A DNA stretch of 64,000 nt from an uncultured Candidatus Bathyarchaeia archaeon. GTDB lineage: Archaea > Thermoproteota > Bathyarchaeia > Bathyarchaeales > DTEX01. Every line of letters starts with the position of its first letter. Position 1 is the stretch's first letter. The stretch lies in NCBI GenBank assembly GCA_964508155.1, contig CAZDRE010000001.1, positions 197,174 to 261,173 of the forward strand. Reading direction: 5' to 3'. The position numbers were made by a program, and so were the translations under genes. Below the pieces are notes generated by a model that worked only from the letters and a program-made list of their open reading frames with translations, searched no databases and was not told the origin of the DNA. This document shows, one piece after another, positions 11,694 through 41,204 of the stretch.

Positions 11694-11699
11694 TCAGAC

Positions 11700-13710: not shown

Positions 13711-14125
13711 GCTTGATCTTTTGAATGAGCTTTACCACGCCGTCGATTATAGCTTCAGGCTTAGGCGGACATCCCGGAACATAAACATCCACTGGGAGAA
13801 CCTCATCGACCCCTCCCAGGACATTATAGCAATCCTTGAATGGCGCTCCGCTGCATGCGCATGCCCCTATAGCCAGAACGTATTTTGGCTCAGGCATCTG
13901 ATCATATATCCTTACAAGCCTATCCCTAACCTGAAGTGTTACGGGACCTGTAACTGCGAGGATGTCAGCATGCCTCGGGCTTCCCTTAAGGAGGATGCCG
14001 AAACGTTCAACATCGAATCTTGGAGTGAAGGCAGCTACAACTTCTATGTCGCATCCGTTACATCCGCCGGCGTTAAAATGTATGATCCAAGGCGATCTCG
14101 TTTGAGCCCACCTAAGCAACCCCAT
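13685..14125 (-). CDS. [NiFe]-hydrogenase small subunit, group-4 type (NuoB/EchC/MbhJ-like), hydrogenase 1
   Basis: The four Cys of the proximal cluster are present (GGCNGC, GACACSG, PGCPP). Size is 146 aa. Confidence 0.9.
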   Translation of the reverse strand: MGLLRWAQTRSPWIIHFNAGGCNGCDIEVVAAFTPRFDVERFGILLKGSPRHADILAVTGPVTLQVRDRLVRIYDQMPEPKYVLAIGACACSGAPFKDCYNVLGGVDEVLPVDVYVPGCPPKPEAIIDGVVKLIQKIKRGDANGRG

Positions 14126-14209: not shown

Positions 14210-14956
14210 TCAGAAGCCCTTAAAATAATCGTACATCTCCAGGATCTCCCTGATCTTTTCAGAGAATACGGTCTTGGAGAATCTATTTGGGTCTCCGATG
14301 GCTTCTTCGAGCACATGATCGAATGGTATCTCCCCGAGATATTTCAGGCCGATCTCTCTTATTCGCTCTCGTATAAACGTGGATTCTCCCATCTTCATGT
14401 TCTCGATCACTCCTACTATCGGAACATTCAATTCGAGGAGTAGATCAATCAGCTTTTTAACGGTCTCAAATGCCAGCCTAGATGGCGTCACCACCAAGAG
14501 GAACCTAACCCTCTTCATGAGCTTGATTACGTCTAGGGTTGCATCGCCAATCCCCGGAGGCATATCGACTATTAAGTAGTCAAGTTGACCCCACCGAGTT
14601 ATTGCTAACAATTCTATCAGGGCATTTGATGCTTCCAATCCCCTTAGTGGCAGGGCTCTGTTGTCGGAAAAGTAGATTATGGACATGTATTTTATGCTGT
14701 GTATCTCAGGCGGGATTATGCCCTTCCACTCGGTCGGATGGGCCTCTCCCGCATTTAAGATGACATGTGTTGATGGGCTTGTGAAGTCCAGGTCTAAGAG
14801 TCCAACTTTATACTTTTTCTTCGCTAGGGCTAGGGCTATTGCGGATGCTATTAGGCTTTTGCCGACTCCTCCCTTCCCGCTTGAAACGGCGATTATATCG
14901 CTTATGTCCTTTAGTCTCTCATCTATGATGGATAATCTTGGATCCGACATCTTCAC
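14210..14956 (-). CDS. Mrp/MinD-family P-loop ATPase; probable ATPase-type HypB (Ni insertion partner of HypA)
   Basis: Deviant Walker A SGKGGVGKS. It overlaps hypA by 4 nt and precedes the hydrogenase 1 genes. No GTPase-type HypB is present in the window. Confidence 0.6.
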   Translation of the reverse strand: MKMSDPRLSIIDERLKDISDIIAVSSGKGGVGKSLIASAIALALAKKKYKVGLLDLDFTSPSTHVILNAGEAHPTEWKGIIPPEIHSIKYMSIIYFSDNRALPLRGLEASNALIELLAITRWGQLDYLIVDMPPGIGDATLDVIKLMKRVRFLLVVTPSRLAFETVKKLIDLLLELNVPIVGVIENMKMGESTFIRERIREIGLKYLGEIPFDHVLEEAIGDPNRFSKTVFSEKIREILEMYDYFKGF

Positions 14957-15354
14957 TTTACGCCCTTCAAGTCCTCAATCCAAACTCCACGTCCACCTAT
15001 AACCTCAAAGTCCGGACTGCCACATTTGGGGCATCTAATAAATGCGTGGATGACCTCCGGGATGAAGTGTATTGCCTCGGCTACATTCCCATCTATCTTC
15101 TCCTTTTCAAGGGACCATTTGAACCCGCAGTTTCTACATTTAATCTCGGCGTTAACGACCTCTATGTTGAACTTGGCATTCTTGAGGAGGCTTGAGTCTC
15201 TAAGTTGAGTTAAGGCGAACTTGAATACTTCGAGCTCTATTTGCTGGAGCTCCCCGATCTTCAATTTTACCTCCCTAATCTCCCTAAGTCCTTCACTCTC
15301 AGCTAGTCTAGAAATAGTTGAGATGACTGCTTCGGCTAAGGCCCATTCATGCAT
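14953..15354 (-). CDS. hypA: Hydrogenase nickel incorporation protein HypA
   Basis: N-terminal MHEWALAEA motif and zinc motifs CRNCG...CPKCG. The start is placed at the internal ATG at 15354 rather than at the ORF-track start at 15429. Confidence 0.9.
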   Translation of the reverse strand: MHEWALAEAVISTISRLAESEGLREIREVKLKIGELQQIELEVFKFALTQLRDSSLLKNAKFNIEVVNAEIKCRNCGFKWSLEKEKIDGNVAEAIHFIPEVIHAFIRCPKCGSPDFEVIGGRGVWIEDLKGVK

Positions 15355-15374
15355 GGGAAAGCCTAGACTACAAC

Positions 15375-15386
15375 AATATTTAAAGG
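15375..15386. promoter_or_regulatory. TATA-like box (aatatttaaagg) in the hypA / hypE divergent spacer
   Basis: It is centred ~26 nt upstream of the hypA ATG (15354), consistent with a leaderless mRNA, and ~55 nt upstream of the hypE ATG (15435). Confidence 0.4.
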
Positions 15387-15434
15387 TAATGCTGAGTGGA
15401 GATCCGTGGTGAGCTACAGCGTGGTGCATAATGG

Positions 15435-16502
15435 ATGAGGAGTAGAGATGGACATATTACTATGCTTCACGGCGCTGGCGGAACCGCCATGCACAGCCTA
15501 ATCAAGGATTATATTCTGAAGTATTTTGGGGAGGATCTCGAAGTTGATGTTCCGCTTGAGGCCTTGGATGACGCCGCGGTTATTGGCGATATTGTATTGA
15601 AGAGCGACTCGCACGCCGTTAAGCCCATATTCTTTCCGGGAGGAGATATCGGCTGCATAGCGGTTGCTGGCACCGTAAATGATATTGCGGTTTTAGGCGC
15701 TGAACCCCACGCCTTAGCGTGCGGCTTCATCCTAGAGGAGGGATTATCCCTAAGCGACTTCGAAAGGATCTTAATGAGTATGCGGCGGATGTGCCGCATG
15801 GCAGGAGTGAATATCGTTACTGGAGATACGAAGGTTGTTGAAAAGGGAAGTTTAGGGGGCTGTGTCATAAACACTTCTGGGATAGGCAGAAGGACTGATG
15901 CCCTAGAGAGAAACCTTAAGGTTGTGAGAGAGTTTAGGGGCGACTTCAAGGCGCGGTGGATTTTAGATTCGAATCTGAGGAAGGGCGATAAGATAATATT
16001 GTCAGGCACAATTGGGGATCACGGCGTAGCCGTTCTATCAGCGCAGGAAGGATTAGATTTTGGAGGAGATATAAAATCTGATGTTAAGCCTCTAAACCGG
16101 ATGATACAGGGCCTTTTAGGCGAGGTTGGCGGCGTAGTCGCAATGAAGGATCCAACTCGCGGGGGATTGGCTGATGCATTAAACGAGATCAGCGAGAAGT
16201 CCAATGTCGGCATACTTATCTATGAGGATAAGATTCCGATTAGAGATTCCGTGCGGGCTGCATGTGAGATGCTGGGCCTTGATCCCCTTGAGATAGGGAA
16301 TGAGGGTAAGGTGGTTATAGGCGTCGTTAGGGAGGCAGCGGAGGACGCCCTGGAATTTTTAAGGTCTACTGAGGAGGGGAGGGATGCTGAGATAATTGGA
16401 GAGGCAACCGATGAGTTTTCAGGCGTGGCCATGCAGACCATGATAGGCGGAAAGAGGATAATTAATAGGCCGGTTGGGGATCCAGTTCCGAGGATATGCT
16501 AA
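15435..16502 (+). CDS. hypE: Hydrogenase maturation protein HypE
   Basis: AIR-synthase-like fold pattern, N-terminal LHGAGG and the terminal PRIC motif. Confidence 0.9.
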   Translation: MRSRDGHITMLHGAGGTAMHSLIKDYILKYFGEDLEVDVPLEALDDAAVIGDIVLKSDSHAVKPIFFPGGDIGCIAVAGTVNDIAVLGAEPHALACGFILEEGLSLSDFERILMSMRRMCRMAGVNIVTGDTKVVEKGSLGGCVINTSGIGRRTDALERNLKVVREFRGDFKARWILDSNLRKGDKIILSGTIGDHGVAVLSAQEGLDFGGDIKSDVKPLNRMIQGLLGEVGGVVAMKDPTRGGLADALNEISEKSNVGILIYEDKIPIRDSVRAACEMLGLDPLEIGNEGKVVIGVVREAAEDALEFLRSTEEGRDAEIIGEATDEFSGVAMQTMIGGKRIINRPVGDPVPRIC

Positions 16503-17590
16503 TCCCCTCTGAAGCTCATGTTCTTCGCCCATATCCTGCATGTGCCCTCCATGCTCACCATGCATGGCCCCACTGGATTCTGCGGAGTGCACGCCTTCAT
16601 GAATAGTGGACATTCAGTCGGCCTTATCCTCCCAACTATTATGAGGTGACATTTGCATCCAGCCGGAATATCAACTCCACGTTCAACCCTTACGTTATAC
16701 TTCAGCCTTGAATCGTAGTTTTCATATTTGCCGCGGATCCTTAGTGCTGAATCCCTGATCATGCCGAGGCCTCTCCATCCGCCATCTACAACCTCAAAGG
16801 CGGCGCTCATCATCTTCTGAGCACGCACATTCCCCTCAGGCAGAACAGCCCGCACATACTCATTCTCCAAACGGGGCTTTCCCATTCTCAGTTGCCTGAG
16901 AATCATGTATATAGCGAATAAAACGTCTAGTGGCTCAAATCCCGCGATGACTGTTGGGATGCGATAATATTTCGGGAAGATCCTGTATGGTTTGAGCCCA
17001 ATAATAGTGCTGACGTGACCTGGCGCGATGAATCCATTCAAGTTTAGTTCTTCCATCTCGGCTAGGAGCTTCATTGCAGGCGGGATTAGCCGATGTGAGA
17101 TGAGGAAACTCATGTTTCTTGGAGGACCCTTTATGATCTCTACGGCTGTTGATGGAGCCGTAGTCTCGAATCCTATGGCGAAGAATGCGAATTGCCTGTC
17201 CGGTTCCCTCTCCGCCATCTTCACGGCGTCTGAGACGCTATAGACTACGCGTACATCCGCTCCTTCAGCCTTCGCATCTAGAAGGGACATGCTTGATCCT
17301 GGAACTCGCAGGACATCCCCGAAACATGCGATTACGACGCCATTTAATGCTAGTTGGATCGCTTCATCAATCTCTGATGCTGGGGTGATGCAGACTGGAC
17401 ATCCAGGCCCGGCGATGACCTCAACGTTAGATGGTAGTAGACTGCGTATTCCACAGTGCGTTATTGTCCACTCGTGTGTTCCGCAGACATGGCATATCTT
17501 TATCATGTCCTGATCTGATGCGAGCCTATGGATCCTCTCTACTATTCGCCTCGCTAAATCGGCATCTCTAAACTTTAAGTTTCCGATCAT
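16499..17590 (-). CDS. hypD: Hydrogenase maturation protein HypD
   Basis: Motifs CHVCGTHEW, GPGCPVCITP and GFETTAPS. Confidence 0.9.
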   Translation of the reverse strand: MIGNLKFRDADLARRIVERIHRLASDQDMIKICHVCGTHEWTITHCGIRSLLPSNVEVIAGPGCPVCITPASEIDEAIQLALNGVVIACFGDVLRVPGSSMSLLDAKAEGADVRVVYSVSDAVKMAEREPDRQFAFFAIGFETTAPSTAVEIIKGPPRNMSFLISHRLIPPAMKLLAEMEELNLNGFIAPGHVSTIIGLKPYRIFPKYYRIPTVIAGFEPLDVLFAIYMILRQLRMGKPRLENEYVRAVLPEGNVRAQKMMSAAFEVVDGGWRGLGMIRDSALRIRGKYENYDSRLKYNVRVERGVDIPAGCKCHLIIVGRIRPTECPLFMKACTPQNPVGPCMVSMEGTCRIWAKNMSFRGD

Positions 17591-17829
17591 TAGGCATCAG
17601 CACGCTGAGCCTCATCTGCCTCTAGGATCTCATTCCATAATCGAATCGTCTCCTCAGCCTGCTCTCTACTTAGGACTTGAATTGCATAGCCAGCGTGAAC
17701 CAGAACGTATTCTCCAACCTTAACGTCCACCAGCGTTACGTCTATCTCCTTTATGATTCCCCCTCCGAAGTCCACTTTAGCCCTATTCTCATGGATGCAT
17801 AGGACCTTAGCCGGAACAGCCAGACACAT
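17590..17829 (-). CDS. hypC: Hydrogenase maturation chaperone HypC
   Basis: N-terminal MCLAVPAKV. The start is set at the ATG giving Met-Cys. The stop overlaps the hypD start. Confidence 0.9.
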   Translation of the reverse strand: MCLAVPAKVLCIHENRAKVDFGGGIIKEIDVTLVDVKVGEYVLVHAGYAIQVLSREQAEETIRLWNEILEADEAQRADA

Positions 17830-17867
17830 GATCATCCAAGCATAAATGAATTGGAGAAATAAATCAG

Positions 17868-20156
17868 TTATGTTTGGTTTGAGTAAGCCGCTATGGCTGC
17901 CTGGCCGAGGGATAATCCGCCATCACCCGGTGGGATCGAGTTATGAACTAGGAATTTTAATCCTGAGTCTTCGATGATCCTCCGCATGATCGTGGTTAGG
18001 ATCTGGTTGCATGCCACTCCGCCTGAAAATCCTACTGTCTTAACGTTCTCTTCCATGGCTTTCTCTATGGCTAATTCTGCGAGTCCCCTAGCGAGATATG
18101 AATGCAGCGAGTATGCGAGATCAGCCTTTGAGTATCTGCTTCTATTCTCGAAGATCTCAATTAGGGGTTCGGTTGTATCTAGGATGTCATTTGCTATATT
18201 GGGTTTAAGTTTGAGGATGTCTCTGCCGCTGATCGCTAGGGACTCCAGCTTCATGGCCGGCTCCCCCTCATAGGTGCGTTCGTAGCATACATCTAGAATC
18301 GCCGCTGCGGCGTCTAGGATCCTCCCGCAGCTCGTCGTCCTTATGCCTCTTCCCCGCTTAATCTGTTTGAGGATAACCTCTATTTCCCTCTCGCCGTGTG
18401 GGAATGACTTCCTATGCTGTAGGAGCCATTCTTCAACGTCAACCCTTCCATGTAATATTCCGGCTGCCATTCTCAGCGGGTAGCGTGCGGCTAGATCCCC
18501 GCCTGTCAGCGGCTGCCGTTCTAGATGTGCTAGACGCTTGAAATCTACGCTCTCCCGCGTGCAGAGGAGTATCTCGCCTCCCCAAGCTTCACCGTCCAGT
18601 CCATATCCGTATCCGTCGCATGCTATGCCTATGATCTCGTCTGTGCCATGCTCAGCCATTAAAGCCGCGATGTGCGCGTGGTGATGCTGAATTTGGATCA
18701 TCTGCCAATCATTCTCCTCTGAGAGCTCCTCTGCAAGGCTTGTCGTTACGAATTTCGGATGGAGATCACATGCTATAACCTTGACCTTCCCATTCGTCAA
18801 GTGGATTAGATGCCTTATGGAGCTCTTGAGGAAGGCTCTAGTCTCAACGTTCTCTACATCGCCTATATGCTGGGTCAGAAAGGCCTTCCTCCCAATTAGG
18901 ATGCAGCCAGTATTATTTAGCTCTCCGCCTAAGCCAACAGCGCAGCGTTTAGCTGCATGCCGCAACATTATCGGAGCCGGCGCATAGCCGCGTGAACGCC
19001 TCAGAAAGACTGTGCTTTCACCGTGGACGCGTATGACTGAATCGTCACATCTCTGGGCGATCCGTCTATTATGGAAGAGTATGTAGTCGGCTACGTCACC
19101 GAGCCTCTTCAGGGCTTCCTCATCATCCTTCACTATAGGCTGATTCGGGGGGTTAGCGCTCGTCATCACGAATGCGGGATCATCGGTCTTATCGAAGAGC
19201 ATGTAATGCAGGCCTGTATATGGGAGCATAACCCCAACATTGTGTAGGCTAGGCGCAATCAGATCTGAAAGGTAATAATTCTCGGATTTTTTCAGGAGGA
19301 CTATGGGGCGTGCATGGGATGTTAGAAGTTCACGCTCCCACCGGTTTATTTCAGCGAATGACCTAACTGCATCTAGACTTCGAGCCATGATCGCGAATGG
19401 CTTCTGCCTCCTATGCTTTGCCCTCCTAAGCCTGAGAAGCGGCTCATCCATCAGTGTTGAGGCGGCTAGGTGGAAGCCTCCGTAACCCTTAATCGCGACG
19501 ATATAACCCTCAGATACGAGCTGGCCAGCCATACGGATTGGGTCATTACACTCTATCCGCTCGCCTCTATTATCCGTGAGATAAACTTTTGGACCGCACT
19601 TTGGGCATGCGATGGTCTGAGCGTGGAATCGCCTATTTAATGGGTCAGCATACTCATTCATGCAGAATTGGCACATGGGGAAGTCCCGCATTGTAGTGTT
19701 CTCTCTATCGTAGGGTAGGCTCTCAATCACCGTGTATCTTGGGCCGCAGTTCGTGCATGTAATGAAGAAGTAATCGTATCTTGGATCCTTGGGATCTCTC
19801 AGTTCCCTTAGGCAATCATCGCAGATCGCAATGTCTGGAGGTATTATTGAGCCTGAAAGCTCAGCTTCCCTCGAACTCTTTTGGATAGTGAATTCCTTGA
19901 ATCTATATTTTCCCTTTAGATGTGAAGTTTTTATCTCGTGGATTACGGCGAGCGGAGGCTTCTTCGCTCTTAATTCCCTTAGGAAATCATCGATCTTCTC
20001 CTTGTCTCCTTCAAGCAGTATCTCTACTCCAGCGTCCCCCCTATTTCTGACGTAGCCATTCAAGCCCTTCCCGACTGCTAGGCGGTATATGAATGGACGG
20101 AAGCCTACCCCCTGAACTATTCCCGTAACTCTAACCTTCAAGCGTGCCATTACCAT
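17868..20156 (-). CDS. hypF: Carbamoyltransferase HypF
   Basis: Acylphosphatase domain (VTGIVQGVGFRPFIYRLA), two CxxC-X18-CxxC zinc fingers, and YrdC-like and Kae1-like domains. Size is 762 aa. Confidence 0.95.
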   Translation of the reverse strand: MVMARLKVRVTGIVQGVGFRPFIYRLAVGKGLNGYVRNRGDAGVEILLEGDKEKIDDFLRELRAKKPPLAVIHEIKTSHLKGKYRFKEFTIQKSSREAELSGSIIPPDIAICDDCLRELRDPKDPRYDYFFITCTNCGPRYTVIESLPYDRENTTMRDFPMCQFCMNEYADPLNRRFHAQTIACPKCGPKVYLTDNRGERIECNDPIRMAGQLVSEGYIVAIKGYGGFHLAASTLMDEPLLRLRRAKHRRQKPFAIMARSLDAVRSFAEINRWERELLTSHARPIVLLKKSENYYLSDLIAPSLHNVGVMLPYTGLHYMLFDKTDDPAFVMTSANPPNQPIVKDDEEALKRLGDVADYILFHNRRIAQRCDDSVIRVHGESTVFLRRSRGYAPAPIMLRHAAKRCAVGLGGELNNTGCILIGRKAFLTQHIGDVENVETRAFLKSSIRHLIHLTNGKVKVIACDLHPKFVTTSLAEELSEENDWQMIQIQHHHAHIAALMAEHGTDEIIGIACDGYGYGLDGEAWGGEILLCTRESVDFKRLAHLERQPLTGGDLAARYPLRMAAGILHGRVDVEEWLLQHRKSFPHGEREIEVILKQIKRGRGIRTTSCGRILDAAAAILDVCYERTYEGEPAMKLESLAISGRDILKLKPNIANDILDTTEPLIEIFENRSRYSKADLAYSLHSYLARGLAELAIEKAMEENVKTVGFSGGVACNQILTTIMRRIIEDSGLKFLVHNSIPPGDGGLSLGQAAIAAYSNQT

Positions 20157-21191: not shown

Positions 21192-21677
21192 TTAAATGTC
21201 CTCATCTGAGAGTATCTCAAGAAGCATCCTCGCGATCCTCCTTGCTGATCTTTGAACCTCAAAGCTCATCTCCTCCCCAAATCCGATCCTCCGCGGCTGT
21301 ATAGCCAGGAGCATGACCCTCGCGCCCAAAGTCTTCTCGATGACCTCCGCTAAAACTGAGAGTGGAACGTTATGGGTTGATAGAGGGATGCCCGAAATCA
21401 TTTCTGGCTTTATAAGCCTAGCCTCGCCTGGGTAGCCTCCGAAGTGCGCAGCGTCCATCATCAAGACGTGGGATGGACTGAACTTTCTTATCTCGCCTAT
21501 GAAGTTCTCCGGAACTGACTGGCAATCTATTATCTTAACTTTGTCTGGGACTTTACCCTTGAGCAACCTGACTATCTCTACTCCTACTCCATCGTCTCCC
21601 CTCATGGGGTTTCCTATGCCGAGTATTACCAGTCTCCCATAGTTCTTCAGCCAATCTGAAAGGCATCTCATTAACAT
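21192..21677 (-). CDS. Hydrogenase maturation endopeptidase (HycI/HybD family)
   Basis: LVILGIGNPMRGDDGVGVEIV motif, with an HNV/His near the C-terminal third. Both large subunits carry cleavable C-terminal extensions. Confidence 0.85.
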   Translation of the reverse strand: MLMRCLSDWLKNYGRLVILGIGNPMRGDDGVGVEIVRLLKGKVPDKVKIIDCQSVPENFIGEIRKFSPSHVLMMDAAHFGGYPGEARLIKPEMISGIPLSTHNVPLSVLAEVIEKTLGARVMLLAIQPRRIGFGEEMSFEVQRSARRIARMLLEILSDEDI

Positions 21678-21701: not shown

Positions 21702-22298
21702 TTAGAGGAATCTTCCCTTATAGAATGTTGTGGCTGGGCATCCTATACATTTCCCAGATGGGTAGCATAATTCTTCGCTGCATATCTTTCCGCAGGGGGA
21801 TCTACTTCCCCTCTTATACCACATTTTTATTGGAACAACGAGATCCTTCGCCGTTGCTATGACCACATTGAACTCAACATCCGTGACGTTTGGATTCTTC
21901 CTTATGTGGTAGTTTATGCAGGACTCAATCGCTGAGAGCCTCTCACCTATGAAGAATAGACATAAATTGTGCCTGCCAGAGGTGACCAGTCCGTTAATAA
22001 ACATTGGGCAGTTCTCAAAGAAGCCCAAAACCTTCCATGGATCCCTCGCTGTCATATCTATCTTCGCTATGTATAAATCCGTCTCCTTCAGGTTCATTCC
22101 GACAACATGCTCTATGACCCCGGCGTCCTCTAATCTCTTTATCCTAGCATAAACCGCCGGCTGGGATATTCCAAGCCTCCGAGCGATCTCGCTCTGAGAG
22201 ATCCTCGGTTCCTCCATCAGATATGATATTATTCTCTTATCAATCTCATCTATCTCGGCGCCTCTCAATGCCTTCACCAGCCTACACTTAAGTGCCAA
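21702..22298 (-). CDS. Lrp/AsnC-family transcriptional regulator with a Cys-rich C-terminal extension
   Basis: HTH segment DKRIISYLMEEPRISQSEIARRLGISQPAVYARIKRLEDAGVI, then a RAM-like domain, then the tail CGKICSEELCYPSGKCIGCP. It lies divergent to the hydrogenase 2 operon. Confidence 0.75.
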   Translation of the reverse strand: MALKCRLVKALRGAEIDEIDKRIISYLMEEPRISQSEIARRLGISQPAVYARIKRLEDAGVIEHVVGMNLKETDLYIAKIDMTARDPWKVLGFFENCPMFINGLVTSGRHNLCLFFIGERLSAIESCINYHIRKNPNVTDVEFNVVIATAKDLVVPIKMWYKRGSRSPCGKICSEELCYPSGKCIGCPATTFYKGRFL

Positions 22299-22450: not shown

Positions 22451-22924
22451 ATGCTGACGAGAACAAAGAGCAACCAAAGGGTTCTACTATTTGATCCTGC
22501 AAGGTGCACTGGATGCAGGTACTGCGAGATCGCATGTTCATTCTATCATTTTGGGACGTTAGGCTTTGAAGGGGCAAATCTGCATGTGATATTTGATGAG
22601 GAGAGAGACGAGTTTGAGGCTATATATTGTCAGCACTGCGATGAGCCCATATGCATGGCTGCATGCCCAAACAGTGCTATAACAAAGGATGAGGAGACGG
22701 GATGGGTTAGGATAAACCCAACCATATGCATAGGATGTAAAACTTGCAGTATAGTCTGCCCTCTCTCCGCTCCATGGTTCAACGAGAAATTCCATGTTTC
22801 AATGAAATGCGACTTCTGCGGTGGAGATCCACAATGCGCCAAGTTCTGCTCTCCGCAGGCAATAAGGGTGACGACGCGTGAGGAGGCCTTAAGACTCAAT
22901 AAGAGGAGATATTTGGAGGTTTAG
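22451..22924 (+). CDS. Multi-cluster [4Fe-4S] ferredoxin subunit (HycB/DmsB-like) of hydrogenase 2
   Basis: Motifs CTGCRYCEIAC, CQHCDEPICMAACP, CIGCKTCSIVCP and CDFCGG..CAKFC. Confidence 0.85.
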   Translation: MLTRTKSNQRVLLFDPARCTGCRYCEIACSFYHFGTLGFEGANLHVIFDEERDEFEAIYCQHCDEPICMAACPNSAITKDEETGWVRINPTICIGCKTCSIVCPLSAPWFNEKFHVSMKCDFCGGDPQCAKFCSPQAIRVTTREEALRLNKRRYLEV

Positions 22925-22928
22925 GTTC

Positions 22929-23597
22929 ATGCGCATTGAGGAGGAGATCGCCGATTATATGCGTAAGGAGCTGAATAACGCTCTTATAGGCGTAGATATA
23001 CCACGTGAAAGGAGAGTCCTACTGATTATTAAGCCAGAAGCCCTAAGGAGAGCCGTTAATGCCCTAAAGAATAATTATTCAAACCTCAGATTCATAACTA
23101 TCACGGTTGTGGATAATGGATTAGACTTCGAGTTCCTACACCACTTTAATATAGGCGGCGTAATCGCAACTCTGAAAAGTTTAAGGGCGAAGGAGGAGAA
23201 TATTCTCGAGTCTATCGCTGATCTAATTCCAGCGGCGACCTTCATAGAGCGGGAGATCGCGGATCTATTCGGCATAAAGATACTTGATCATGAAGCTAAG
23301 AATCTGATATTGACGAGAGACTGGCCGGAAGATAAGCGTCCACTGAGGAAGCCGCTTATGGGGCCTCTTCCAAAGCAGGCTAGGCCCGTAGCCGAGGCTT
23401 TGATATCAACTGGCTGCGTCGCTCCAATCTCGAGGATGATGGAGAGAAAACGGGAGTCGGCTGGGCTTTCTAAAACGCCTGCCTTCACTTTCACGGAAGA
23501 TGAGGATCTACGTGAATTTCACGAAATATTGAGGGACACCAGCCTATCAGAGAGTGTAGGCTTCGATTGGAAGAGAAAAAAGTTGAGATATAGGTGA
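22929..23597 (+). CDS. NuoC/EchD-like subunit of hydrogenase 2 with a ~80-aa C-terminal extension
   Basis: FITITVVD, ATFIEREIADLFGIKILDHE and LRKPL match the NuoC-family pattern. The tail has no recognisable motif. Confidence 0.8.
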   Translation: MRIEEEIADYMRKELNNALIGVDIPRERRVLLIIKPEALRRAVNALKNNYSNLRFITITVVDNGLDFEFLHHFNIGGVIATLKSLRAKEENILESIADLIPAATFIEREIADLFGIKILDHEAKNLILTRDWPEDKRPLRKPLMGPLPKQARPVAEALISTGCVAPISRMMERKRESAGLSKTPAFTFTEDEDLREFHEILRDTSLSESVGFDWKRKKLRYR

Positions 23598-23603
23598 AGT
23601 TGC

Positions 23604-24479
23604 ATGGGCAGATATGCTCTTTTTCTCGGATGTCAAATTCCGATGCGCATTCCAAGCGTTGAGATCGCATCGAGAAACATATTTGAAAAGTTAGGCCTGG
23701 AAATATCTGATCTTAAGGGTTACTCATGCTGCCCCGAGCCCGTTATATCCCGGCTATTAGATGAGAAGGCTTGGCTTACAGTCTCAGCGCGAAACATTAC
23801 GCTGGCGGAGGAGTTAGGTCTCGACATAGCAACGCTATGTAATGGATGTTATGAAACTCTACTCGAGGCGAATGTCATTCTCAAGCGTGACCGAGAAATG
23901 AGGGAGCAGGTGAATAGCATCCTTAGGAGATATGGAAGGGAGTATAGAGGAGTAGTCGACGTTAAGCACATAGTCGAGGTTCTATATGAGGATGCCGGGT
24001 TAGAGAAGATTAGGGAGCATGTTGTTAAGCCTCTGAAGATCCGCGTTGCTCTACATTACGGTTGCCATTTATATCGGGAGCCGAATGGCGGGGATATTAT
24101 GCGTAAGCCAGATATGATGAGGAGGCTGGCGGAGGCCGCTGGTGCCACAGTAGTGAATTATGGGCTTGAACGTTTATGCTGCGGATATCCAAGCATGCAG
24201 GTAGATGAGGAATTCTCACTCAATCAGAGGCTGCTTCCGAAGTTGAGGAGGATAAAGGATGCTGGAGCAGACGCTGTAATCCTAACATGCCCAGCATGTA
24301 ACATACAATTTGAGACTGGGCAGGTGCTTCTTAGAGCACGTGGCATACGCTTTGATATTCCATGCCTGAACCTAATGGAGCTCCTAGCATTATCTTTTGG
24401 AGTTCCATACGAGAAGCTGCATCTCGAAGTTCATAGGAGCCCCGTTCTACAGTTCGCTAAAAGATTGGAGGGGAATTAA
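23604..24479 (+). CDS. HdrB-like protein with two complete CCG domains
   Basis: First motif C-X31-CC-X35-CNGC and second motif C-X37-CC-X35-CPAC, counted directly in the translation. The gene sits between the NuoC-like and large-subunit genes, with gaps of 6 and 3 nt. Confidence 0.85.
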   Translation: MGRYALFLGCQIPMRIPSVEIASRNIFEKLGLEISDLKGYSCCPEPVISRLLDEKAWLTVSARNITLAEELGLDIATLCNGCYETLLEANVILKRDREMREQVNSILRRYGREYRGVVDVKHIVEVLYEDAGLEKIREHVVKPLKIRVALHYGCHLYREPNGGDIMRKPDMMRRLAEAAGATVVNYGLERLCCGYPSMQVDEEFSLNQRLLPKLRRIKDAGADAVILTCPACNIQFETGQVLLRARGIRFDIPCLNLMELLALSFGVPYEKLHLEVHRSPVLQFAKRLEGN

Positions 24480-24482
24480 GCC

Positions 24483-25610
24483 TTGCCCGAAACCGTTCAT
24501 ATTGGACCATACCGTCCGCAGATGGTAGAGCCTGAAAGATTCGAGCTTCTAGTAGAGAATGGCCGGATAACCGATGTTAATATCGAGTTGGGTTATGTTC
24601 ACAGGGGGATAGAACGGCTCTTCACTCAGAAGACCTACATGCAGAACTTGGCGCTTGCCGAGCGAATCTGCGGGATATGCTCCGGGGTGCATACGCTCTG
24701 TTACGCGCAGACTGTTGAGGCGATAATGAACGTGGATGTCCCGGAGAGAGCCGAGTATCTGCGTTGCATATACATGGAGCTTGAGCGGCTGCACAGTCAC
24801 TATTTATGGTTTGGAGTATTGGCTCACAGCCTACATGAGCATGAAGCCTTCCTGAAGATAATGACTGAGAGGGAGCAGATTCAGGACCTACTTGAATACC
24901 TAACTGGGAATAGGATAAACTATTTGATTAATACGATAGGCGGCGTCAGGAGAGATATAACTTCGAGGAAGGCTGAGAAGATTCGTAAGGTCCTAAGAAG
25001 CCTTAGGAAGCTCTCAGATTATCTGCTCTCACTTCTAGATGAGGATGGAGCATTCACAGAGAAGATTAAGGGCATAGGGGTCTTGCCGAGGGAGAAGGCG
25101 TTAAGTCTGGGAGCAGTCGGCCCTACACTGCGTGGATCCGGAGTGGAAAGCGATGTGCGTAGGGATGATCCATACGCTGCCTATGACAGGTTAGACTTCA
25201 ATGTGATAACTGAGGATGAGGGTGATGTGTGGGCTAGAACCTCTGTTAGAGCGAAGGAGACATTGGAGAGCATAAGCATAATTGAGCAGGCCCTTGATGA
25301 ACTTCCTGGGGGCGAAATAGCGGTTAAGCCCGGTGAGCCTCTGGAGAGGGAGGAGATTGGGAGGGCTGAAGCTCCACGCGGAGAACTCGTCTATTACATT
25401 AGATCGGATGGGACGAATATACCTGCGAGGGTGAAGGTGAGAACCCCATCCTTCGCTAATAACTTTGCATTAACAGAGATGCTTCGCGGCGATAGACTTC
25501 AGGATGCAAGGGTGATAATTGAGAGTATAGATCCATGCTTCGCATGCACGGATCGCGTTACAGTTGTAGATGCGAAGACTGGTAGGAGACGGTTGGTGGA
25601 GTTGATCTAG
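24483..25610 (+). CDS. [NiFe]-hydrogenase large subunit, group-4 type, hydrogenase 2
   Basis: L1 motif ERICGICSGVH and L2 motif DPCFACTDR, plus a 20-aa C-terminal extension. TTG start. It shares blocks with the hydrogenase 1 large subunit (DVRRDDPYAAYD, EAPRGEL). Confidence 0.9.
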   Translation: MPETVHIGPYRPQMVEPERFELLVENGRITDVNIELGYVHRGIERLFTQKTYMQNLALAERICGICSGVHTLCYAQTVEAIMNVDVPERAEYLRCIYMELERLHSHYLWFGVLAHSLHEHEAFLKIMTEREQIQDLLEYLTGNRINYLINTIGGVRRDITSRKAEKIRKVLRSLRKLSDYLLSLLDEDGAFTEKIKGIGVLPREKALSLGAVGPTLRGSGVESDVRRDDPYAAYDRLDFNVITEDEGDVWARTSVRAKETLESISIIEQALDELPGGEIAVKPGEPLEREEIGRAEAPRGELVYYIRSDGTNIPARVKVRTPSFANNFALTEMLRGDRLQDARVIIESIDPCFACTDRVTVVDAKTGRRRLVELI

Positions 25611-26543
25611 ATGGGTGATGGGAAGATCTCAATTTATAGGTTCATGTCCGCTGGCTGTAACGGCTGCGACGTGCAGATACTCGAGTGTCTAGTTCCAAGA
25701 TACGGGCTTGAGGATCTTGGAGTGGAGATTGTATCAACGCCTGATAAGGCAAATGTCCTCGCGGTAACCGGGGGAATAAATGTTAAGGGATTAGAGGAGC
25801 TGAAAAACGCCTATGAAAGGCTTAGGCCGCCTAAGATCGTCATTGCAGTCGGAAACTGCGCCGTAACTAAGGGGATATTCAGCGACGGCTACCCAATGGT
25901 AGGCCCACCCGACCGGATAATCCCGGTGAACCTTTATATTCCTGGATGCCCGCCCAGGCCTCAGGCCATAGTCTCAGCCATAGCGAAGATTTTAGGCACT
26001 AGCATCGAGAGGAGGGAGGATTATTGGTGTACGCCTGAGGGTTTCAGGGGGAAGCATGAGTTTGACGGGGATAAGTGTATTGGATGCGGTGCATGCGCTC
26101 AGATATGCAGCTCCCAGGCCATAGAGGTGCATGATGAGGATGGAAGGCGAATGATAAGAGTTAACTATGGGAGATGCACCTTCTGCGCCTTCTGCCAGGA
26201 TGAATGCCCAACAGAGGCGATAAGGCTTACAGGGGAATATCACTTATCAACTGTGGATCGGGAGGATGCATATGTCGAGAATGAGGTTGAGATGCTTAGG
26301 TGCCGCATATGCGGATCATATTATGCGCCTGTAAGGCAGGTTGACTGGGCAATAAAGAGGGCAGTTACGGAATCGGATATAAGGGATGAGCTAGTCGGAG
26401 AATTAAGGAGGGCCACTGAAGTATGCCCAGACTGCAGAATGAAGATAGATAATATTAGGAGGGCAAAGAGGATACTGGTGCAGCTCTCTTTGAGGGGGTC
26501 GGGAATAGCCGCAGGCTGTGACGCTTCCAAGCTAGAGGGTTAG
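25611..26543 (+). CDS. Fusion of the group-4 small subunit (NuoB-like) with a 2x[4Fe-4S] (NuoI-like) domain and a C-terminal CxxC...CxxC tail
   Basis: Residues 1-130 carry GCNGC, GNC and PGCPP. Residues 150-205 carry CIGCGACAQIC and CTFCAFCQDECP. Residues 231-275 carry CRICG-X37-CPDC. Confidence 0.85.
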   Translation: MGDGKISIYRFMSAGCNGCDVQILECLVPRYGLEDLGVEIVSTPDKANVLAVTGGINVKGLEELKNAYERLRPPKIVIAVGNCAVTKGIFSDGYPMVGPPDRIIPVNLYIPGCPPRPQAIVSAIAKILGTSIERREDYWCTPEGFRGKHEFDGDKCIGCGACAQICSSQAIEVHDEDGRRMIRVNYGRCTFCAFCQDECPTEAIRLTGEYHLSTVDREDAYVENEVEMLRCRICGSYYAPVRQVDWAIKRAVTESDIRDELVGELRRATEVCPDCRMKIDNIRRAKRILVQLSLRGSGIAAGCDASKLEG

Positions 26544-26548
26544 TCATC

Positions 26549-27706
26549 TCAGATGTAATTCAGCCCATGTATTGGCGTCGGCAATGGTAAAGCAACCGAT
26601 ATGAATTCTGGATGTGGCTCCATCCTAACCACTGGCTGCGGCGGCCCTCTGAGTTTCTCCGGCGATCCAAAGAATAGGAGGGTAAGGGCTCTTGGGTCCA
26701 GAGGGCTTACCATCTCGCCGTTTAGGTATAATCTTATCCTTCCATCTGTTAGGCTTGAGATTAATTCTTCTGATCTCTCTTTTCCGATCCTCTCCTCTAG
26801 GTATGGCTTTACCTTCCTGAGGAAGCTTTGTGGATTTATGATTGAGAATACCGCTTGAGCCTTTGAGGGCGGCCTCTCCAGGCCGATTCTCTCTAGGAGA
26901 TGTAGCATATTTATGTCCTGATGTGGAACAGCCAGCCTAATCACGTTTACATTTAATATCTCATAAAGGATTCTTAGCGCATGTAAAATTGCGTTTCTGG
27001 ATCCTGCATACTCGTATATCTCAAGTGTGCTTGGATCCCTTATCGACTTGACGGCCACGTATGCTATCGGCTCATCACCGGCCAAGACAATGTAGGTCTT
27101 TATCTTAACTCGTCCCACCGATATTTCGCGTCCTGCTAGGAGGCTGAAATCTTCTAGGCTACGCTTGTATCTGACGGGTTCCAGATGGTAGATTCTGACC
27201 AGATCCTTTAGTAGGCTCTTATCGTAACCTATTAGGTCTATGTCCTCCGAGTCTAAGTTTAGTTCTCCACGCCTCAGATCGTATATGTAGATTCTGCCCG
27301 CCTCTACGCATCCAAGCCTTTTATATAGGCCTCTTGAACCCGAAATGAGGACGAAGTCGACATTGTCCCTCCGCATCTTTGAGAGCGCATCCTTGACTAG
27401 GGCTGAGGCATATCCTCTATTCCTGTAGTCTGGATGTGTGCAGACGCTTCCCAACATTCCAACCTTAAACCAGCAGCCGCAGATGAGCAGATTTCCCTCC
27501 CATATACCAGCGTGGGAGACGGGCTTCCCGTCGCATATGATCACCCGGAGATTCTCAAGGTTGTCCTCGTTGAAGATATGTGGAAATCTGTTCTTCATCA
27601 GCGGGGGCAGATTATGCCTTAGCATGAAGACCGAGTTTACCAGATGGACTATATCGTCCAGCTCTTCAGGTTTAGCTGCCCTAGGACCCTCTAACATAAA
27701 CCTCAC
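26549..27706 (-). CDS. GNAT-family N-acetyltransferase (Eis-like, with a C-terminal SCP2-like region)
   Basis: Acetyl-CoA binding pattern VCTHPDYRNRGYASALV. Size is 385 aa. Confidence 0.65.
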   Translation of the reverse strand: MRFMLEGPRAAKPEELDDIVHLVNSVFMLRHNLPPLMKNRFPHIFNEDNLENLRVIICDGKPVSHAGIWEGNLLICGCWFKVGMLGSVCTHPDYRNRGYASALVKDALSKMRRDNVDFVLISGSRGLYKRLGCVEAGRIYIYDLRRGELNLDSEDIDLIGYDKSLLKDLVRIYHLEPVRYKRSLEDFSLLAGREISVGRVKIKTYIVLAGDEPIAYVAVKSIRDPSTLEIYEYAGSRNAILHALRILYEILNVNVIRLAVPHQDINMLHLLERIGLERPPSKAQAVFSIINPQSFLRKVKPYLEERIGKERSEELISSLTDGRIRLYLNGEMVSPLDPRALTLLFFGSPEKLRGPPQPVVRMEPHPEFISVALPLPTPIHGLNYI

Positions 27707-30935: not shown

Positions 30936-32831
30936 TCAGCCCAGAAGCCCCTCAGACTTCAGCCTCTTAAGGGCTCTATGCACCTGGGCGGCGCCGATTA
31001 TGAAGCTGGCATTATTGCGCACCCAATACTCATTCGTGAGGTATGCGTATGTCCAGCCCCAAACATCCATGTCTATCAGCGGATAATCAACTGGCAGCCT
31101 ATCCGAAACAATGAAGTTCGCCGTCCTTAAGTCGCCTATATCGAATCTCTCACCATTCCCGCCGACGATTCCATTGAGGATTCCTCCAGGCACAACTCCA
31201 TCCTCATGTCCCTCAATGAAGCAGTATCTGTGATGATAGCAGCCTGGACCCCTACCGACACCAGCCATTAAGGATACATCCCTAGGATTGAAGCCCAGAA
31301 GCCACTGGATCTGATGCTCAGCCATCCTCAGGAACCTCGGCTCATTGAATAGCATGCTTGCAGTGGCCAGGCCCCAAGCGTATGACCCAAAGAACTTACT
31401 TGTGGGATACCTGCCCAGATTCCTCGGATTTCCCTTCTCATCCAACGTTCCAACCTGACCGAAGGGCGATAGATCCGTCAATGAAGCAACAAAATCTATC
31501 CACCGCCTAAACGCATTTAGAGCCCTTCTCTTAAGATCAGCGTTTACATCGAGATCCGCGAACTCATAGAGGCCGATTACATGATAGTCGCAGAACAGAT
31601 ACTTGGATGAGCGGTTTCTGTCAATGTAGAAGTATCCCCTCTCATCCTGAAGGGGCAATAGTTCCTCCACGCATTTCTCAGCCGTTCTCAAGTATTCCCT
31701 ATCCTCCAACGCCCTGTAGAGTTCAATGCTCAGCATTAATAGCGAGGATTGAAAGTTGAGGTATCTCTTGAGATCAGACTCTGAAGGCTTAGAGTTCATT
31801 ATGTAATCATAAACTTCCCTTGCTATACCGATGTATCTATCTGAGACTTGCCTATCATACTTGGAGATGTTCCTTCCAAGCTTAGCAAGTGACATTGCCA
31901 CTCCAGCCCTAAAGGTGTGGCTTGGAGGATAATAATCCAGCGACTGCTCTAGGGTGACTATCCTTGGAGGATCCTTCTCAGGCGAGCCGAGCCACACGCA
32001 TACATTCTCAAGTGGCGGAAACTCATCTGAGAGAGTGAAGTTCCTCGTTGATGTGAATACTTGAAGGAAAGTCCCCAGCCTCTTATAGTATACTTTGCTG
32101 AAGTATTCGCCCTCCCACAGAGCCTCCTCTAAGACCTCATGCGCCTCCCTCTCACGCCCAAACTCCAATAGAACCTCAGCGAGGACATTTAAGGCCCAGA
32201 CTCCATAGGCTCCTGTTCCAATCCACTTTCCATAATCCCCAGCGTCATGCCATCCTCCAGTAGCATCCAGCCTAGTCCCATCATCGAGTATAATCGCATC
32301 CTCCGTATGGCAGGCCTTATGCCAACCGGGAACTTCAGTTCCACACCGCTGATAATAGAACCACTTGGCTGCCTTCAAGGCCAGATCCAAATATAGATCC
32401 TTCTTTATCCTGAAGACGTAGGATACAGCAACCTCATAGGACTTGGGAACCTTAACCTCTATCCAGTAGAGGCCTTCCTTCCTGAAGTCTGTGAAGTCAA
32501 GCTTATAGTTGTTTCCGCCCCAAATGTGGAATCCCCACTTCTTGAAGTTTCCCCTGTAAACTACGGATGGAACTGCAGGCGGCTGCTTATTCGTAGTCAC
32601 ATCGATTATCTCGAAGTGACCAGAAAGATCCACATTGTTAGCCCACAAAACAGCCTCCTTTATACCGTCAACATCATATCCGGCATGGCAGACTATTGGC
32701 TTAATGAACTTCTGGGCTATTATCTGCCCCTCAGCCGGCGGAGACCAGCTCTCAAGCTCCTGCCTAACCCTTCTAATCGTCCTAGCCTGAGAAAGATCAA
32801 AGAAGAGCTCCTTCCTCAAATCGATCACCAA
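30936..32831 (-). CDS. Glycoside hydrolase family 9 (endoglucanase-like) with an N-terminal Ig-like domain
   Basis: DATGGWHDAGDYGKW (the GH9 DAGD motif) and a C-terminal TNEYWVRNNA (catalytic Glu region). Confidence 0.8.
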   Translation of the reverse strand: MVIDLRKELFFDLSQARTIRRVRQELESWSPPAEGQIIAQKFIKPIVCHAGYDVDGIKEAVLWANNVDLSGHFEIIDVTTNKQPPAVPSVVYRGNFKKWGFHIWGGNNYKLDFTDFRKEGLYWIEVKVPKSYEVAVSYVFRIKKDLYLDLALKAAKWFYYQRCGTEVPGWHKACHTEDAIILDDGTRLDATGGWHDAGDYGKWIGTGAYGVWALNVLAEVLLEFGREREAHEVLEEALWEGEYFSKVYYKRLGTFLQVFTSTRNFTLSDEFPPLENVCVWLGSPEKDPPRIVTLEQSLDYYPPSHTFRAGVAMSLAKLGRNISKYDRQVSDRYIGIAREVYDYIMNSKPSESDLKRYLNFQSSLLMLSIELYRALEDREYLRTAEKCVEELLPLQDERGYFYIDRNRSSKYLFCDYHVIGLYEFADLDVNADLKRRALNAFRRWIDFVASLTDLSPFGQVGTLDEKGNPRNLGRYPTSKFFGSYAWGLATASMLFNEPRFLRMAEHQIQWLLGFNPRDVSLMAGVGRGPGCYHHRYCFIEGHEDGVVPGGILNGIVGGNGERFDIGDLRTANFIVSDRLPVDYPLIDMDVWGWTYAYLTNEYWVRNNASFIIGAAQVHRALKRLKSEGLLG

Positions 32832-41144: not shown

Positions 41145-41204
41145 TAATCATTAAAAGGGCAGCTTCCCCTATATTTCGTTTAGTTCTACAGTTTCATTTT
41201 GGAA

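Follow-up and report, generated by a model that had tools for sequence, protein, structure and literature searches.

Gene organization of the operon

We analyzed a 64,000-nt stretch of DNA (hereafter the window) from an uncultured Candidatus Bathyarchaeia archaeon (GenBank assembly GCA_964508155.1, contig CAZDRE010000001.1, positions 197,174 to 261,173), which carries an operon that combines a group-4 [NiFe] hydrogenase core with an embedded homolog of the heterodisulfide reductase subunit HdrB. The operon is a real and, in Bathyarchaeia, highly conserved five-gene unit, to which no membrane part is linked. Its genes all lie on the forward strand, span window positions 22451-26543 and are separated by gaps of 4, 6, 3 and 0 nt in the list of open reading frames (ORFs); a convergent gene ends 5 nt past its 3' end:

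22451-22924 (+): HycB/HydN-type polyferredoxin, 157 aa (Pfam Fer4_11, E 4.7e-15; NCBIfam matches HybA, DmsB and HydN)
22929-23597 (+): NuoC-like subunit, 222 aa (Pfam Complex1_30kDa, residues 33-141)
23346-23594 (+): region homologous to the C-terminal arm of HdrC, last ~83 residues of the NuoC-like protein (profile comparison with HdrC)
23604-24479 (+): HdrB homolog, 291 aa, with two CCG motifs (TIGR03288 positions 2-288 of 290, 282 bits)
24483-25610 (+): group-4 [NiFe] large subunit, 375 aa, TTG start (Pfam Complex1_49kDa, PF00346, and NiFeSe_Hases, PF00374)
25611-26543 (+): small-subunit fusion, 310 aa (Pfam Oxidored_q6, residues 1-126, and Fer4, residues 150-206)
26549-27706 (-): GNAT gene, convergent (ORF list)

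Families were assigned with Pfam and NCBIfam, and all match E-values lie far below chance. The initial annotation of this DNA had described five tightly packed genes at this site, bounded by a divergent regulator gene upstream (21702-22298, minus strand) and by the convergent GNAT gene, and the ORF list bears out the coordinates, the gaps and both neighbors. Its further reading of the large subunit as Ni-Fe-competent, and of two complete CCG motifs with defined spacings in the third protein, also stands, as both ligand motifs are intact and the spacings are exact. Related loci are referred to below by L numbers and proteins by P numbers.

A Ni-Fe-competent group-4 core

The large subunit contains the L1 motif RICGICSGVH and the L2 motif DPCFACTDR, with all four Ni-Fe cysteines kept, and ends in a 17-residue C-terminal extension past L2. 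Its closest relatives of solved structure are MbhL (6cfw_L, 272 bits) and HycE (7z0s_E, 240 bits), with all NuoD chains of complex I scoring lower, and models of group-3 hydrogenases match the N-terminal motif region only (VhuA, E 2.6e-10; FrhA, E 1.7e-20). In the small-subunit fusion, a NuoB-like domain (NCBIfam NuoB, residues 11-128) with Cys16, 19, 83 and 113 for the proximal cluster is joined to a NuoI/HycF-like 2x[4Fe-4S] domain (HycF-type NF009053, residues 143-282) and an extra CxxC...CxxC pair. The operon thus provides the components of a group-4 catalytic core, namely a NuoD/MbhL/HycE-type large subunit, a NuoB-type small subunit as well as NuoC- and NuoI-type subunits. The polyferredoxin encoded by the first gene has 16 cysteines in four CxxCxxCxxxC-type motifs and is predicted to hold four [4Fe-4S] clusters, which presumably wire the hydrogenase core to HdrB or a partner.

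An embedded HdrB homolog and an HdrC-derived tail

The two CCG motifs of the HdrB homolog read C10-X31-CC-X35-C79xxC82 and C154-X37-CC-X35-C229xxC232. The five HdrB chains of solved structure in the PDB score 201-258 bits against the protein, with all ten CCG-motif cysteines aligned. Its match to the TIGR03288 equivalog extends over the full length, with 282 bits falling below the curated cut-off of 345 bits, and we regard it as a member of the HdrB family, not as an assured CoM-S-S-CoB reductase. As a lineage, most Bathyarchaeia are not known to encode methyl-coenzyme M reductase (MCR), so that CoM-S-S-CoB is an improbable disulfide for most carriers of the operon. The window ORFs scanned included no MCR-related gene. 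The heterodisulfide used by Hdr enzymes in non-methanogenic Bathyarchaeia is an acknowledged open question (PMC7886697).

The C-terminal region of the NuoC-like protein is related to HdrC. Residues 145-219 match HdrC residues 108-182 of 184 (5odc_C, E 9e-5), and the tail also matches TIGR03290 over positions 80-143 of 144. A profile made from ten such tails matches the HdrC subunits of four solved Hdr complexes over residues 107-183 of 184 (E 1.2e-12 to 7e-10), with the terminal GFDW-K--L motif lying within the match. The ferredoxin domain of HdrC is absent from both the NuoC-like protein and the operon, and the window encodes no separate HdrC with two [4Fe-4S] clusters, as found in an HdrBC pair; of HdrC, the operon keeps just the C-terminal ~80 residues as a fusion to NuoC.

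Searches with tblastn detected the tail in HdrB-embedded loci, both of the soluble type seen in the window and of a membrane type (see below), and in none of 77 other group-4 loci; in the three loci of the P0122 clade, the NuoC-like protein is longer and its more divergent tail was missed by this search. Given its restriction to loci with an embedded hdrB, the tail probably serves as a tether between HdrB and the hydrogenase, and the presence of an HdrC-derived element on the NuoC-like subunit lends support to the idea that HdrB is physically docked on the hydrogenase. If the arm of HdrC embraces HdrB, its fusion to NuoC would, by analogy, hard-wire HdrB to the hydrogenase, which makes the NuoC::HdrC-tail fusion a concrete, testable docking mechanism.

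Absence of linked membrane subunits

In a simple hydropathy scan, none of the five proteins contained a hydrophobic 19-residue segment, and tblastn searches of the whole 64-kb window with NuoA/H/J/K/M/N and MbhD/MbhH queries gave noise only (E >= 0.3). The proteins with multiple transmembrane (TM) segments in the window are an MFS transporter, PHO4, an MscS-like channel, a LysE-type translocator and a signal peptidase, to which a 3-TM protein without Pfam match (7983-10100) can be added. Likewise, no NuoH or antiporter subunit is encoded within +-10 kb in 12 distinct soluble-type loci. The earlier statement that no NuoH-, NuoL- or Mrp-like gene is linked to the operon consequently held for the operon itself, for the window and for +-10 kb around its orthologs.

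The fused small subunits differ from their membrane-type counterparts in their N-terminal parts. Soluble-type fusions have 10-15 residues before the first CxxC, compared to 20-23 in membrane-type homologs, and are devoid of the conserved '(A)RKKSPW' N-terminal motif of membrane-type NuoB; moreover, ~20 residues at the start of their NuoI part are missing, with the PxTxxYP segment among them. The loss of these elements is consistent with the loss of a membrane interface.

Conservation and sister forms

Relatives of the large subunit at 76-95% identity fall into more than 120 clusters, and every named representative is from Bathyarchaeia/Bathyarchaeota. At 50%-identity resolution, the family is isolated, with the nearest representatives at 58%, 51% and then <=48%. 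A homolog search seeded with P0124 returned Bathyarchaeia only, and the cluster names included no Methanocella or Methanomethylicia entry.

The order polyferredoxin (Fer4), NuoC-like protein, CCG protein, large subunit and NuoB/Fer4 fusion is kept on the contigs read for relatives at 76-78% identity (L001, L004, L007, L015, L016 and L019), and the flanks differ. In L001-L003, genes for TusA/DsrE/DsrH lie upstream and a gene for a GcvH-like protein with a ribbon-helix-helix (RHH) element as well as HdrA/MvhD genes downstream, L004-L006 and L019 have HdrC-HdrB2-HypF-HypC-HypD downstream, L007 and L008 are flanked by unrelated small ORFs and a phosphoenolpyruvate carboxykinase gene, and L015 and L016 show further variations around the five-gene unit. 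The unit also recurs at greater distance, in L009 (58%), where it lies amid HdrA, MvhD and HdrBC genes and a group-3 hydrogenase, in L012 (46%) and the Hadarchaeia metagenome-assembled genome (MAG) L087 (46%), and in the P0122 clade, comprising L014, L095 and L096 (51%). No NuoH or antiporter gene of their own was seen in these five-gene loci.

In the window and in 20 of 20 related loci (~15 distinct places), hdrB separates the nuoC-like gene from the large-subunit gene. The initial annotation had named the position of the CCG gene between nuoC- and nuoD-like genes as a point to be checked, and this synteny was conserved in every orthologous operon examined. A homologous polyferredoxin gene lies upstream in nearly all HdrB-embedded loci; the short contig L014 begins at nuoC. 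The taxonomic spread across Bathyarchaeia, Hadarchaeia and Asgard archaea is a sample among the matches listed and not a census. Candidate complete or near-complete genomes with the operon are represented by JGI contig Ga0315547_1000001 (1.4 Mb), GCA_018396995.1 (JZ_bin_23), GCA_038838665.1 and the Hadarchaeia MAG S4B4_HD70.

Two loci, L017 from Candidatus Asgardarchaeum abyssi and L022 from a Bathyarchaeia MAG, contain the core of Fer4, tailed NuoC, HdrB and large-subunit genes followed by genes for NuoH, NuoI, NuoB and antiporter-like subunits. Their large subunits are ~49-52% identical to that of the window, and they fit the published description of membrane-bound 'Ehd-like' enzymes. An 'hdrB2 inside an fpo-like operon' has been reported in hot-spring Bathyarchaeia (PMC8407382), and operons of the L017/L022 type probably explain this report. 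Because L017 and L022 keep NuoH between the large subunit and NuoI/NuoB, the NuoH-less form represents a distinct architecture and not an assembly gap. The other group-4 loci among the matches listed (~75) are mostly ordinary membrane-bound operons with NuoH beside the large subunit, and an embedded HdrB occurs in none of them.

In L095 (8040-20327, JGI 3300001580), the HdrB-hydrogenase module is arranged head to tail with a complete Mbh/Mrp-type hydrogenase, ~100 nt apart. This second operon encodes MbhD-like and NuoK-like proteins, two antiporter subunits, NuoB, NuoC, a large subunit, NuoH, NuoI and HycI, and the pair may represent co-regulated H2-producing and H2-consuming enzymes or a single, shared assembly. 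We rejected, as a general reading, the idea that the MbhD gene after the operon in L014 marks a membrane arm, since L095 shows that such genes open a neighboring, complete Mbh-type operon.

The large-subunit tree was distance-based (neighbor-joining), with weak deep support. Bootstrap values are 100% for the Bathyarchaeia core, 94% upon inclusion of L009 and 100% for the P0122 clade, and deep nodes reach <=55%. Monophyly of the NuoH-less large subunits (55%) or of all HdrB-type ones (9%) is unsupported, and we therefore claim no ancestral or derived direction. Coo-type sequences, such as the 'CO-induced hydrogenase' of Telmatospirillum, are placed near the clade of the window.

Two more distant relatives carry other partner genes. 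On L097 (2252-5740), a Logan ERR14790953 contig with a bacterial ribosomal protein L28 gene aboard, a bacterial relative (large subunit P0149, 42% identical) is encoded in the order NuoC-like protein, large subunit, small HypA-like protein, NuoB::ferredoxin fusion and Pyr_redox_2 flavoprotein. No membrane subunit was seen on this 6.6-kb contig, whose genes represent a further group-4 module of the membrane-less kind, here with another acceptor subunit. The second relative, P0132 (45%), is encoded on L013 (288-7108, ENA contig ERZ1742239), where the genes follow each other in the order Fer4_11, AOR, Prismane-family protein (of the carbon monoxide dehydrogenase or hybrid-cluster type), NuoC, large subunit, NuoB and 2x[4Fe-4S] protein; the remaining 4 kb of this contig contain no NuoH, antiporter or HdrB gene.

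A GcvH-like protein of 197 aa recurs 4-9 kb downstream of Bathyarchaeia operons (L001 14349-14942; L007 18848-19441; L015, ~+6.8 kb from the large subunit). It has an N-terminal RHH-like extension and the sequence ETWMF in place of the canonical lipoyl-lysine motif ESVKA, and its gene lies beside a MazE-PhoU gene in L001 and L007. The protein may act in regulation rather than as a lipoyl carrier. Overall, GcvH-like genes occur within 10 kb in L001, L007, L015 and L096 and in none of 77 other group-4 loci.

The hints to a substrate that neighboring genes provide disagree, pointing to sulfur relay in L001 and L015, to HdrA/MvhD/HdrBC in several loci and to GcvT/GcvH in L096, with no such hint in the window. 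Lipoyl-GcvH was rejected as a general substrate, although it is kept below as a weak alternative, because the Bathyarchaeia GcvH-like proteins lack the lipoyl-lysine, none is encoded in the window and canonical GcvT/GcvH are found in L096 only.

Regulator, maturation genes and other genes of the window

The region upstream of the operon encodes a potential regulator and a set of hydrogenase maturation factors:

21702-22298 (-): AsnC/Lrp-type HTH regulator, 198 aa, divergent (Pfam HTH_24, HTH_AsnC-type)
21192-21677 (-): HycI-type maturation endopeptidase (Pfam HycI, E 9e-15)
17868-20156 (-): HypF (Pfam)
17590-17835 (-): HypC (MCLAVP N-terminus)
16499-17590 (-): HypD (Pfam)
15435-16502 (+): HypE (Pfam)
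14953-15429 (-): HypA (Pfam)
14210-14956 (-): ParA/NUBPL-type ATPase (Pfam)

The regulator has a cysteine-rich C-terminus (C169, C173, C178, C184 and C187; CGKICSEELCYPSGKCIGC), and a 65% identical protein is encoded in the equivalent divergent position of L001 (7187-7756, minus strand), making it a candidate operon regulator that may sense metals or the redox state. An HTH_3 protein is also encoded upstream of the operon, listed between the regulator and HycI genes and the hyp genes. The hycI gene adjoins the operon in L004-L006 as well, and its product would remove the large subunit's C-terminal extension. Since a full set of hypA/C/D/E/F and hycI genes is adjacent to the operon and the 17-aa extension is cleavable, an active Ni-Fe enzyme is to be expected. 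A mis-annotated Fpo or Nuo complex was ruled out, given the intact Ni-Fe ligands and the adjacent maturation genes.

A second group-4-type [NiFe] cluster lies at 10149-14125 on the minus strand of the window:

13685-14125 (-): NuoB-like protein, keeping the membrane-type 'SPW' N-terminal motif
13201-13710 (-): NuoC-like protein
12035 to ~13204 (-): large subunit, with RICGICSDAH and DPCFACMDR intact
11700-12044 (-): NuoI-like protein
10149-11693 (-): FrhB/FdhB-like protein, 514 aa, with N-terminal 2x[4Fe-4S] and two CBS domains

NuoH and antiporter genes are lacking from this cluster, and its nearest relatives (L048, 71%; L018, L049 and L058) have NuoH directly after the large subunit. The large-subunit gene shows no in-frame canonical start; the sole ATG in the vicinity (13226-13224) is out of frame by one base, and the body of the ORF begins with '..IVKVPFGPQHPALKEPE', a motif that in the orthologs follows an in-frame ATG or GTG at a distance of a few codons. 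Window positions 13190-13230 (minus strand) thus contain either a frameshift in a decaying gene, in keeping with the lack of NuoH, or an error of sequencing or assembly. Together, positions 10.1-26.5 kb form a hydrogenase island composed of two membrane-less modules and hyp genes.

Other genes of the window include:

3-725 (+): aldehyde:ferredoxin oxidoreductase, 3' part
1748-3652 (+) and 30936-32831 (-): GH127-like and GH9 glycoside hydrolases
6880-7971: MazE-PhoU gene, with no GcvH-like gene in the window
7983-10100 (-): secreted, C-terminally anchored protein, 705 aa, no Pfam match
41199-42053 (+): F420-glutamyl ligase, which fits the FrhB-like subunit of the second hydrogenase

Comparison with known systems

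The initial annotation had further assumed that this combination of subunits was undescribed, and in this respect it did not hold. Its suggestion of a soluble, CCG-coupled hydrogenase module retains a genuine embedded HdrB, a Ni-Fe-competent core and the lack of a linked membrane subunit, and loses the claim to an undescribed combination, because HdrB-linked group-4 hydrogenases (Drh, Ehd, Ehe, Ehg and Ehd-like) have been published as genome predictions. According to the works that cite it, the 'disulfide-reducing hydrogenase' Drh was predicted in Methanocella/Methanocellales (Lyu & Lu 2015, as cited in PMC6046458 and PMC9723716), and its transcripts are described as up-regulated in syntrophic co-culture (PMC6046458). 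Ehd was predicted in Methanomethylicia, as quoted in a later paper (Borrel 2019, via PMC9723716). Ehe has been described in Culexarchaeia and Ehg in Nezhaarchaeia, with an 'Ehd-like' clade that includes Bathyarchaeia sequences (Kohtz et al. 2022, PMC9723716), and Ehg was expressed in a culture (PMC12700198).

In all four of these enzymes, as in the window operon, hdrB is co-located with group-4 catalytic genes. Unlike Ehd, Ehe and Ehg, the window operon has no ion-antiporter or other membrane subunit, and Drh also lacks an antiporter. As far as the citing accounts of Drh go, the parallel is close: group-4-type [NiFe] genes are co-located with hdrB and an ion-antiporter subunit is absent (PMC6046458, PMC9723716), the chemistry proposed, direct H2-dependent disulfide reduction without an ion gradient, equals that proposed here, and the catalytic subunit is said to be nearest to the Coo type, whose members also stand beside the window clade in our tree. 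The same accounts set Drh apart as an enzyme of methanogens with CoM-S-S-CoB that is 'putatively membrane-associated', whereas the window operon comes from Bathyarchaeia; the two are likened here by description, not by sequence.

With the soluble arm of formate hydrogenlyase (FHL; HycB-HycE-HycF-HycG and FdhF, PDB 7Z0S) and the membrane-bound hydrogenase (MBH) of Pyrococcus (PDB 6CFW), the operon shares a NuoB/C/D/I-type catalytic module. It also has in common with them a HycB-type four-cluster ferredoxin, a NuoI-like domain of the HycF family and the logic of a substrate subunit hung on the ferredoxin chain. Both FHL and MBH, however, are mounted on NuoH-like and antiporter-like subunits in the membrane, unlike the window enzyme. 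As its substrate module, the window enzyme has HdrB and FHL has FdhF, whereas MBH takes electrons from ferredoxin, and, unlike in either system, HdrB is proposed to be anchored through the NuoC tail.

MvhAGD-HdrABC (group 3c; PDB 5ODC, 8RVU) catalyzes cytoplasmic H2-dependent disulfide reduction at a two-cluster HdrB site, as proposed for the window enzyme, whose HdrB is similar to that of this complex (~200-258 bits) and which retains the C-terminal region of HdrC. In contrast to the group-4 enzyme of the window, it belongs to group 3c, uses HdrA/FAD-based electron bifurcation and contains a complete HdrC; the hallmarks of group 3c (MvhA, MvhG, MvhD and HdrA) were not found in the window, where the large subunit is NuoD-like and HdrA/MvhD are missing. 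Finally, EchEDFC of Sulfurospirillum multivorans is, like the window operon, a group-4 cluster without membrane subunit, in this case CooH-like, so that an arrangement of this kind already has a precedent (PMC5357620). Unlike the window operon, EchEDFC is bacterial, lacks HdrB and has undetected or very low transcripts (PMC5357620), and as far as tested it is not a close relative.

Known, as predictions, are therefore HdrB-linked group-4 hydrogenases as such. Within the open-access literature searched, we found no description of a soluble five-gene form that stands alone and is the dominant and highly conserved one in Bathyarchaeia, with relatives in Hadarchaeia and elsewhere, nor of the NuoB::NuoI and NuoC::HdrC-tail fusions, and it is these three elements that appear to be new.

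Proposed function and alternatives

The gene content, the cofactor motifs, the absence of local membrane genes, the conservation of the unit and the homology of the tail to HdrC are observed directly. On balance, and by analogy with MBH and FHL for the core and HdrBC for the acceptor, we favor the view that the five genes encode a cytoplasmic, non-pumping H2:disulfide oxidoreductase with HdrB as its wired-in acceptor site. Equivalent chemistry has been put forward for Drh and Ehd (PMC9723716, PMC6046458). In such an enzyme, H2 would be split at the Ni-Fe site of the large subunit, and the electrons would then pass to the proximal [4Fe-4S] cluster of the NuoB domain, to the two [4Fe-4S] clusters of the fused NuoI/HycF domain and onward to the four clusters of the HycB-type ferredoxin, a step modeled on formate hydrogenlyase, in which HycB links HycF to the substrate subunit. 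They would finally reach the two non-cubane clusters of HdrB, where a disulfide would be reduced to two thiols, with HdrB being held by an HdrC-type C-terminal arm that is here fused to the NuoC-like subunit. The reaction would in principle be reversible and, because a NuoH or antiporter module is missing, uncoupled from ion translocation.

Several points weigh against a non-pumping H2:disulfide oxidoreductase. To pass electrons from H2 to a disulfide at -140 mV without conserving energy would be wasteful. It is tempting to speculate that an acceptor near equilibrium would make sense of an uncoupled enzyme. The search for membrane subunits covered 64 kb, so that such subunits may possibly be encoded elsewhere in the genome, and the P0122-clade module lies directly upstream of a complete Mbh/Mrp-type operon in L095, which could be a hint of membrane association. 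As the HdrB homolog scores below the equivalog cut-off, its substrate may differ from those of known HdrB proteins. The docking argument draws on the MvhAGD-HdrABC structure of Wagner et al. from 2017, in which the C-terminal part of HdrC reportedly forms an extended arm around HdrB. More generally, sequence comparisons are the basis on which we propose a single complex, a route for the electrons, a reaction direction and a substrate class.

An alternative that we consider unlikely is that the five proteins form the peripheral arm of a membrane-bound, ion-translocating Ehd-type complex, with NuoH and antiporter subunits encoded elsewhere or shared with another hydrogenase and electron transfer being energy-conserving. 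The reduction of a typical heterodisulfide with H2 is exergonic enough for ion pumping. Moreover, the closest non-identical architectures include NuoH/antiporter operons built around the Fer4-NuoC-HdrB-NuoD core (L017 in Asgard archaea and L022 in Bathyarchaeia), and Mbh/Mrp-type operons directly follow the module in L095 and L014. However, the Mbh operon of L095 has its own NuoB/C/D/H/I set, and neither the window nor the 12 distinct soluble-type loci (+-10 kb) provide a membrane subunit, with the flanks of the five-gene unit varying freely. Although Ehd, Ehe and Ehg are membrane-bound according to the literature (PMC9723716, PMC12700198), NuoB and NuoI are fused in the soluble type and both lack the N-terminal segments conserved in membrane-type homologs.

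It also appears improbable that the module supplies the hydrogenase part of a larger bifurcating or confurcating assembly in the cytoplasm, in which it would be joined through the HycB-type polyferredoxin to flavoproteins of the HdrA/MvhD type or to a different oxidoreductase, functionally replacing MvhAGD, and HdrB would act as the high-potential exit. In favor of such an assembly, L001, L009 and L015 have genes of the HdrA and MvhD/FlpD types, in many cases more than one, at a distance of up to 10 kb, a separate HdrC-HdrB pair comes directly after the operon in L004-L006, L019 and L009, and the four-cluster ferredoxin offers more wire than a direct contact between NuoI and HdrB needs; in addition, HdrABC is common in Bathyarchaeia, with the heterodisulfide unassigned (PMC7886697). 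Yet no HdrA, MvhD or HdrC homologs were found in the 64-kb window, genes of these types are also absent near L007, L012, L016, L087 and L096, and hdrB lies inside the hydrogenase operon instead of with HdrA.

Least probable is a physiological direction towards H2 evolution, in which cells fermenting at low H2 pressure would dispose of electrons from a reduced dithiol, such as dihydrolipoyl-GcvH of the glycine cleavage system or a different thiol carrier of low potential: group-4 hydrogenases typically evolve H2, and the -290 mV lipoyl couple would be near equilibrium with H2 and so require no ion pump, but the GcvH-like proteins of L001, L007 and L015 are RHH-fused, lack the lipoyl-lysine and are probably regulators, and the window contains no GcvH. 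Genes for GcvT and a canonical, lipoylatable GcvH (ESVKA motif) do lie directly downstream of the operon in L096, albeit in this one sequenced lineage only, and the published Ehe cluster of Culexarchaeia also has GcvH (PMC9723716).

Implications

Beyond the cytoplasmic H2:disulfide oxidoreductase proposed for the window, the relatives raise the tentative and rather doubtful prospect of a widespread family of truly cytoplasmic group-4 hydrogenases, characterized by the absence of NuoH, a NuoB::NuoI fusion, the loss of membrane-facing N-terminal elements and interchangeable acceptor modules. The latter would comprise HdrB (window and Hadarchaeia), Pyr_redox_2 (L097), Prismane-family and AOR proteins (L013) and possibly FrhB (second cluster of the window). 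If it exists, such a family would provide living counterparts of the soluble hydrogenase that is postulated to have joined an Mrp antiporter on the way to complex I, and would give Bathyarchaeia an uncoupled link between H2 and a thiol/disulfide pool.

A group-4 enzyme without membrane arm would offer a natural minimal system for research on hydrogenases and complex I, and so would the pair of soluble and membrane-bound sister operons, both being of use for studies on the function of the peripheral arm and its attachment to, or detachment from, an ion-pumping module. Bathyarchaeia rank among the most abundant archaea of anoxic sediments, and little is understood of how they metabolize H2 and thiols. 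If our proposal is correct, a conserved soluble hydrogenase delivers electrons from H2 to HdrB, so that Bathyarchaeia would couple H2 to a disulfide without a membrane, and the role of Hdr-type enzymes in non-methanogens would become testable.

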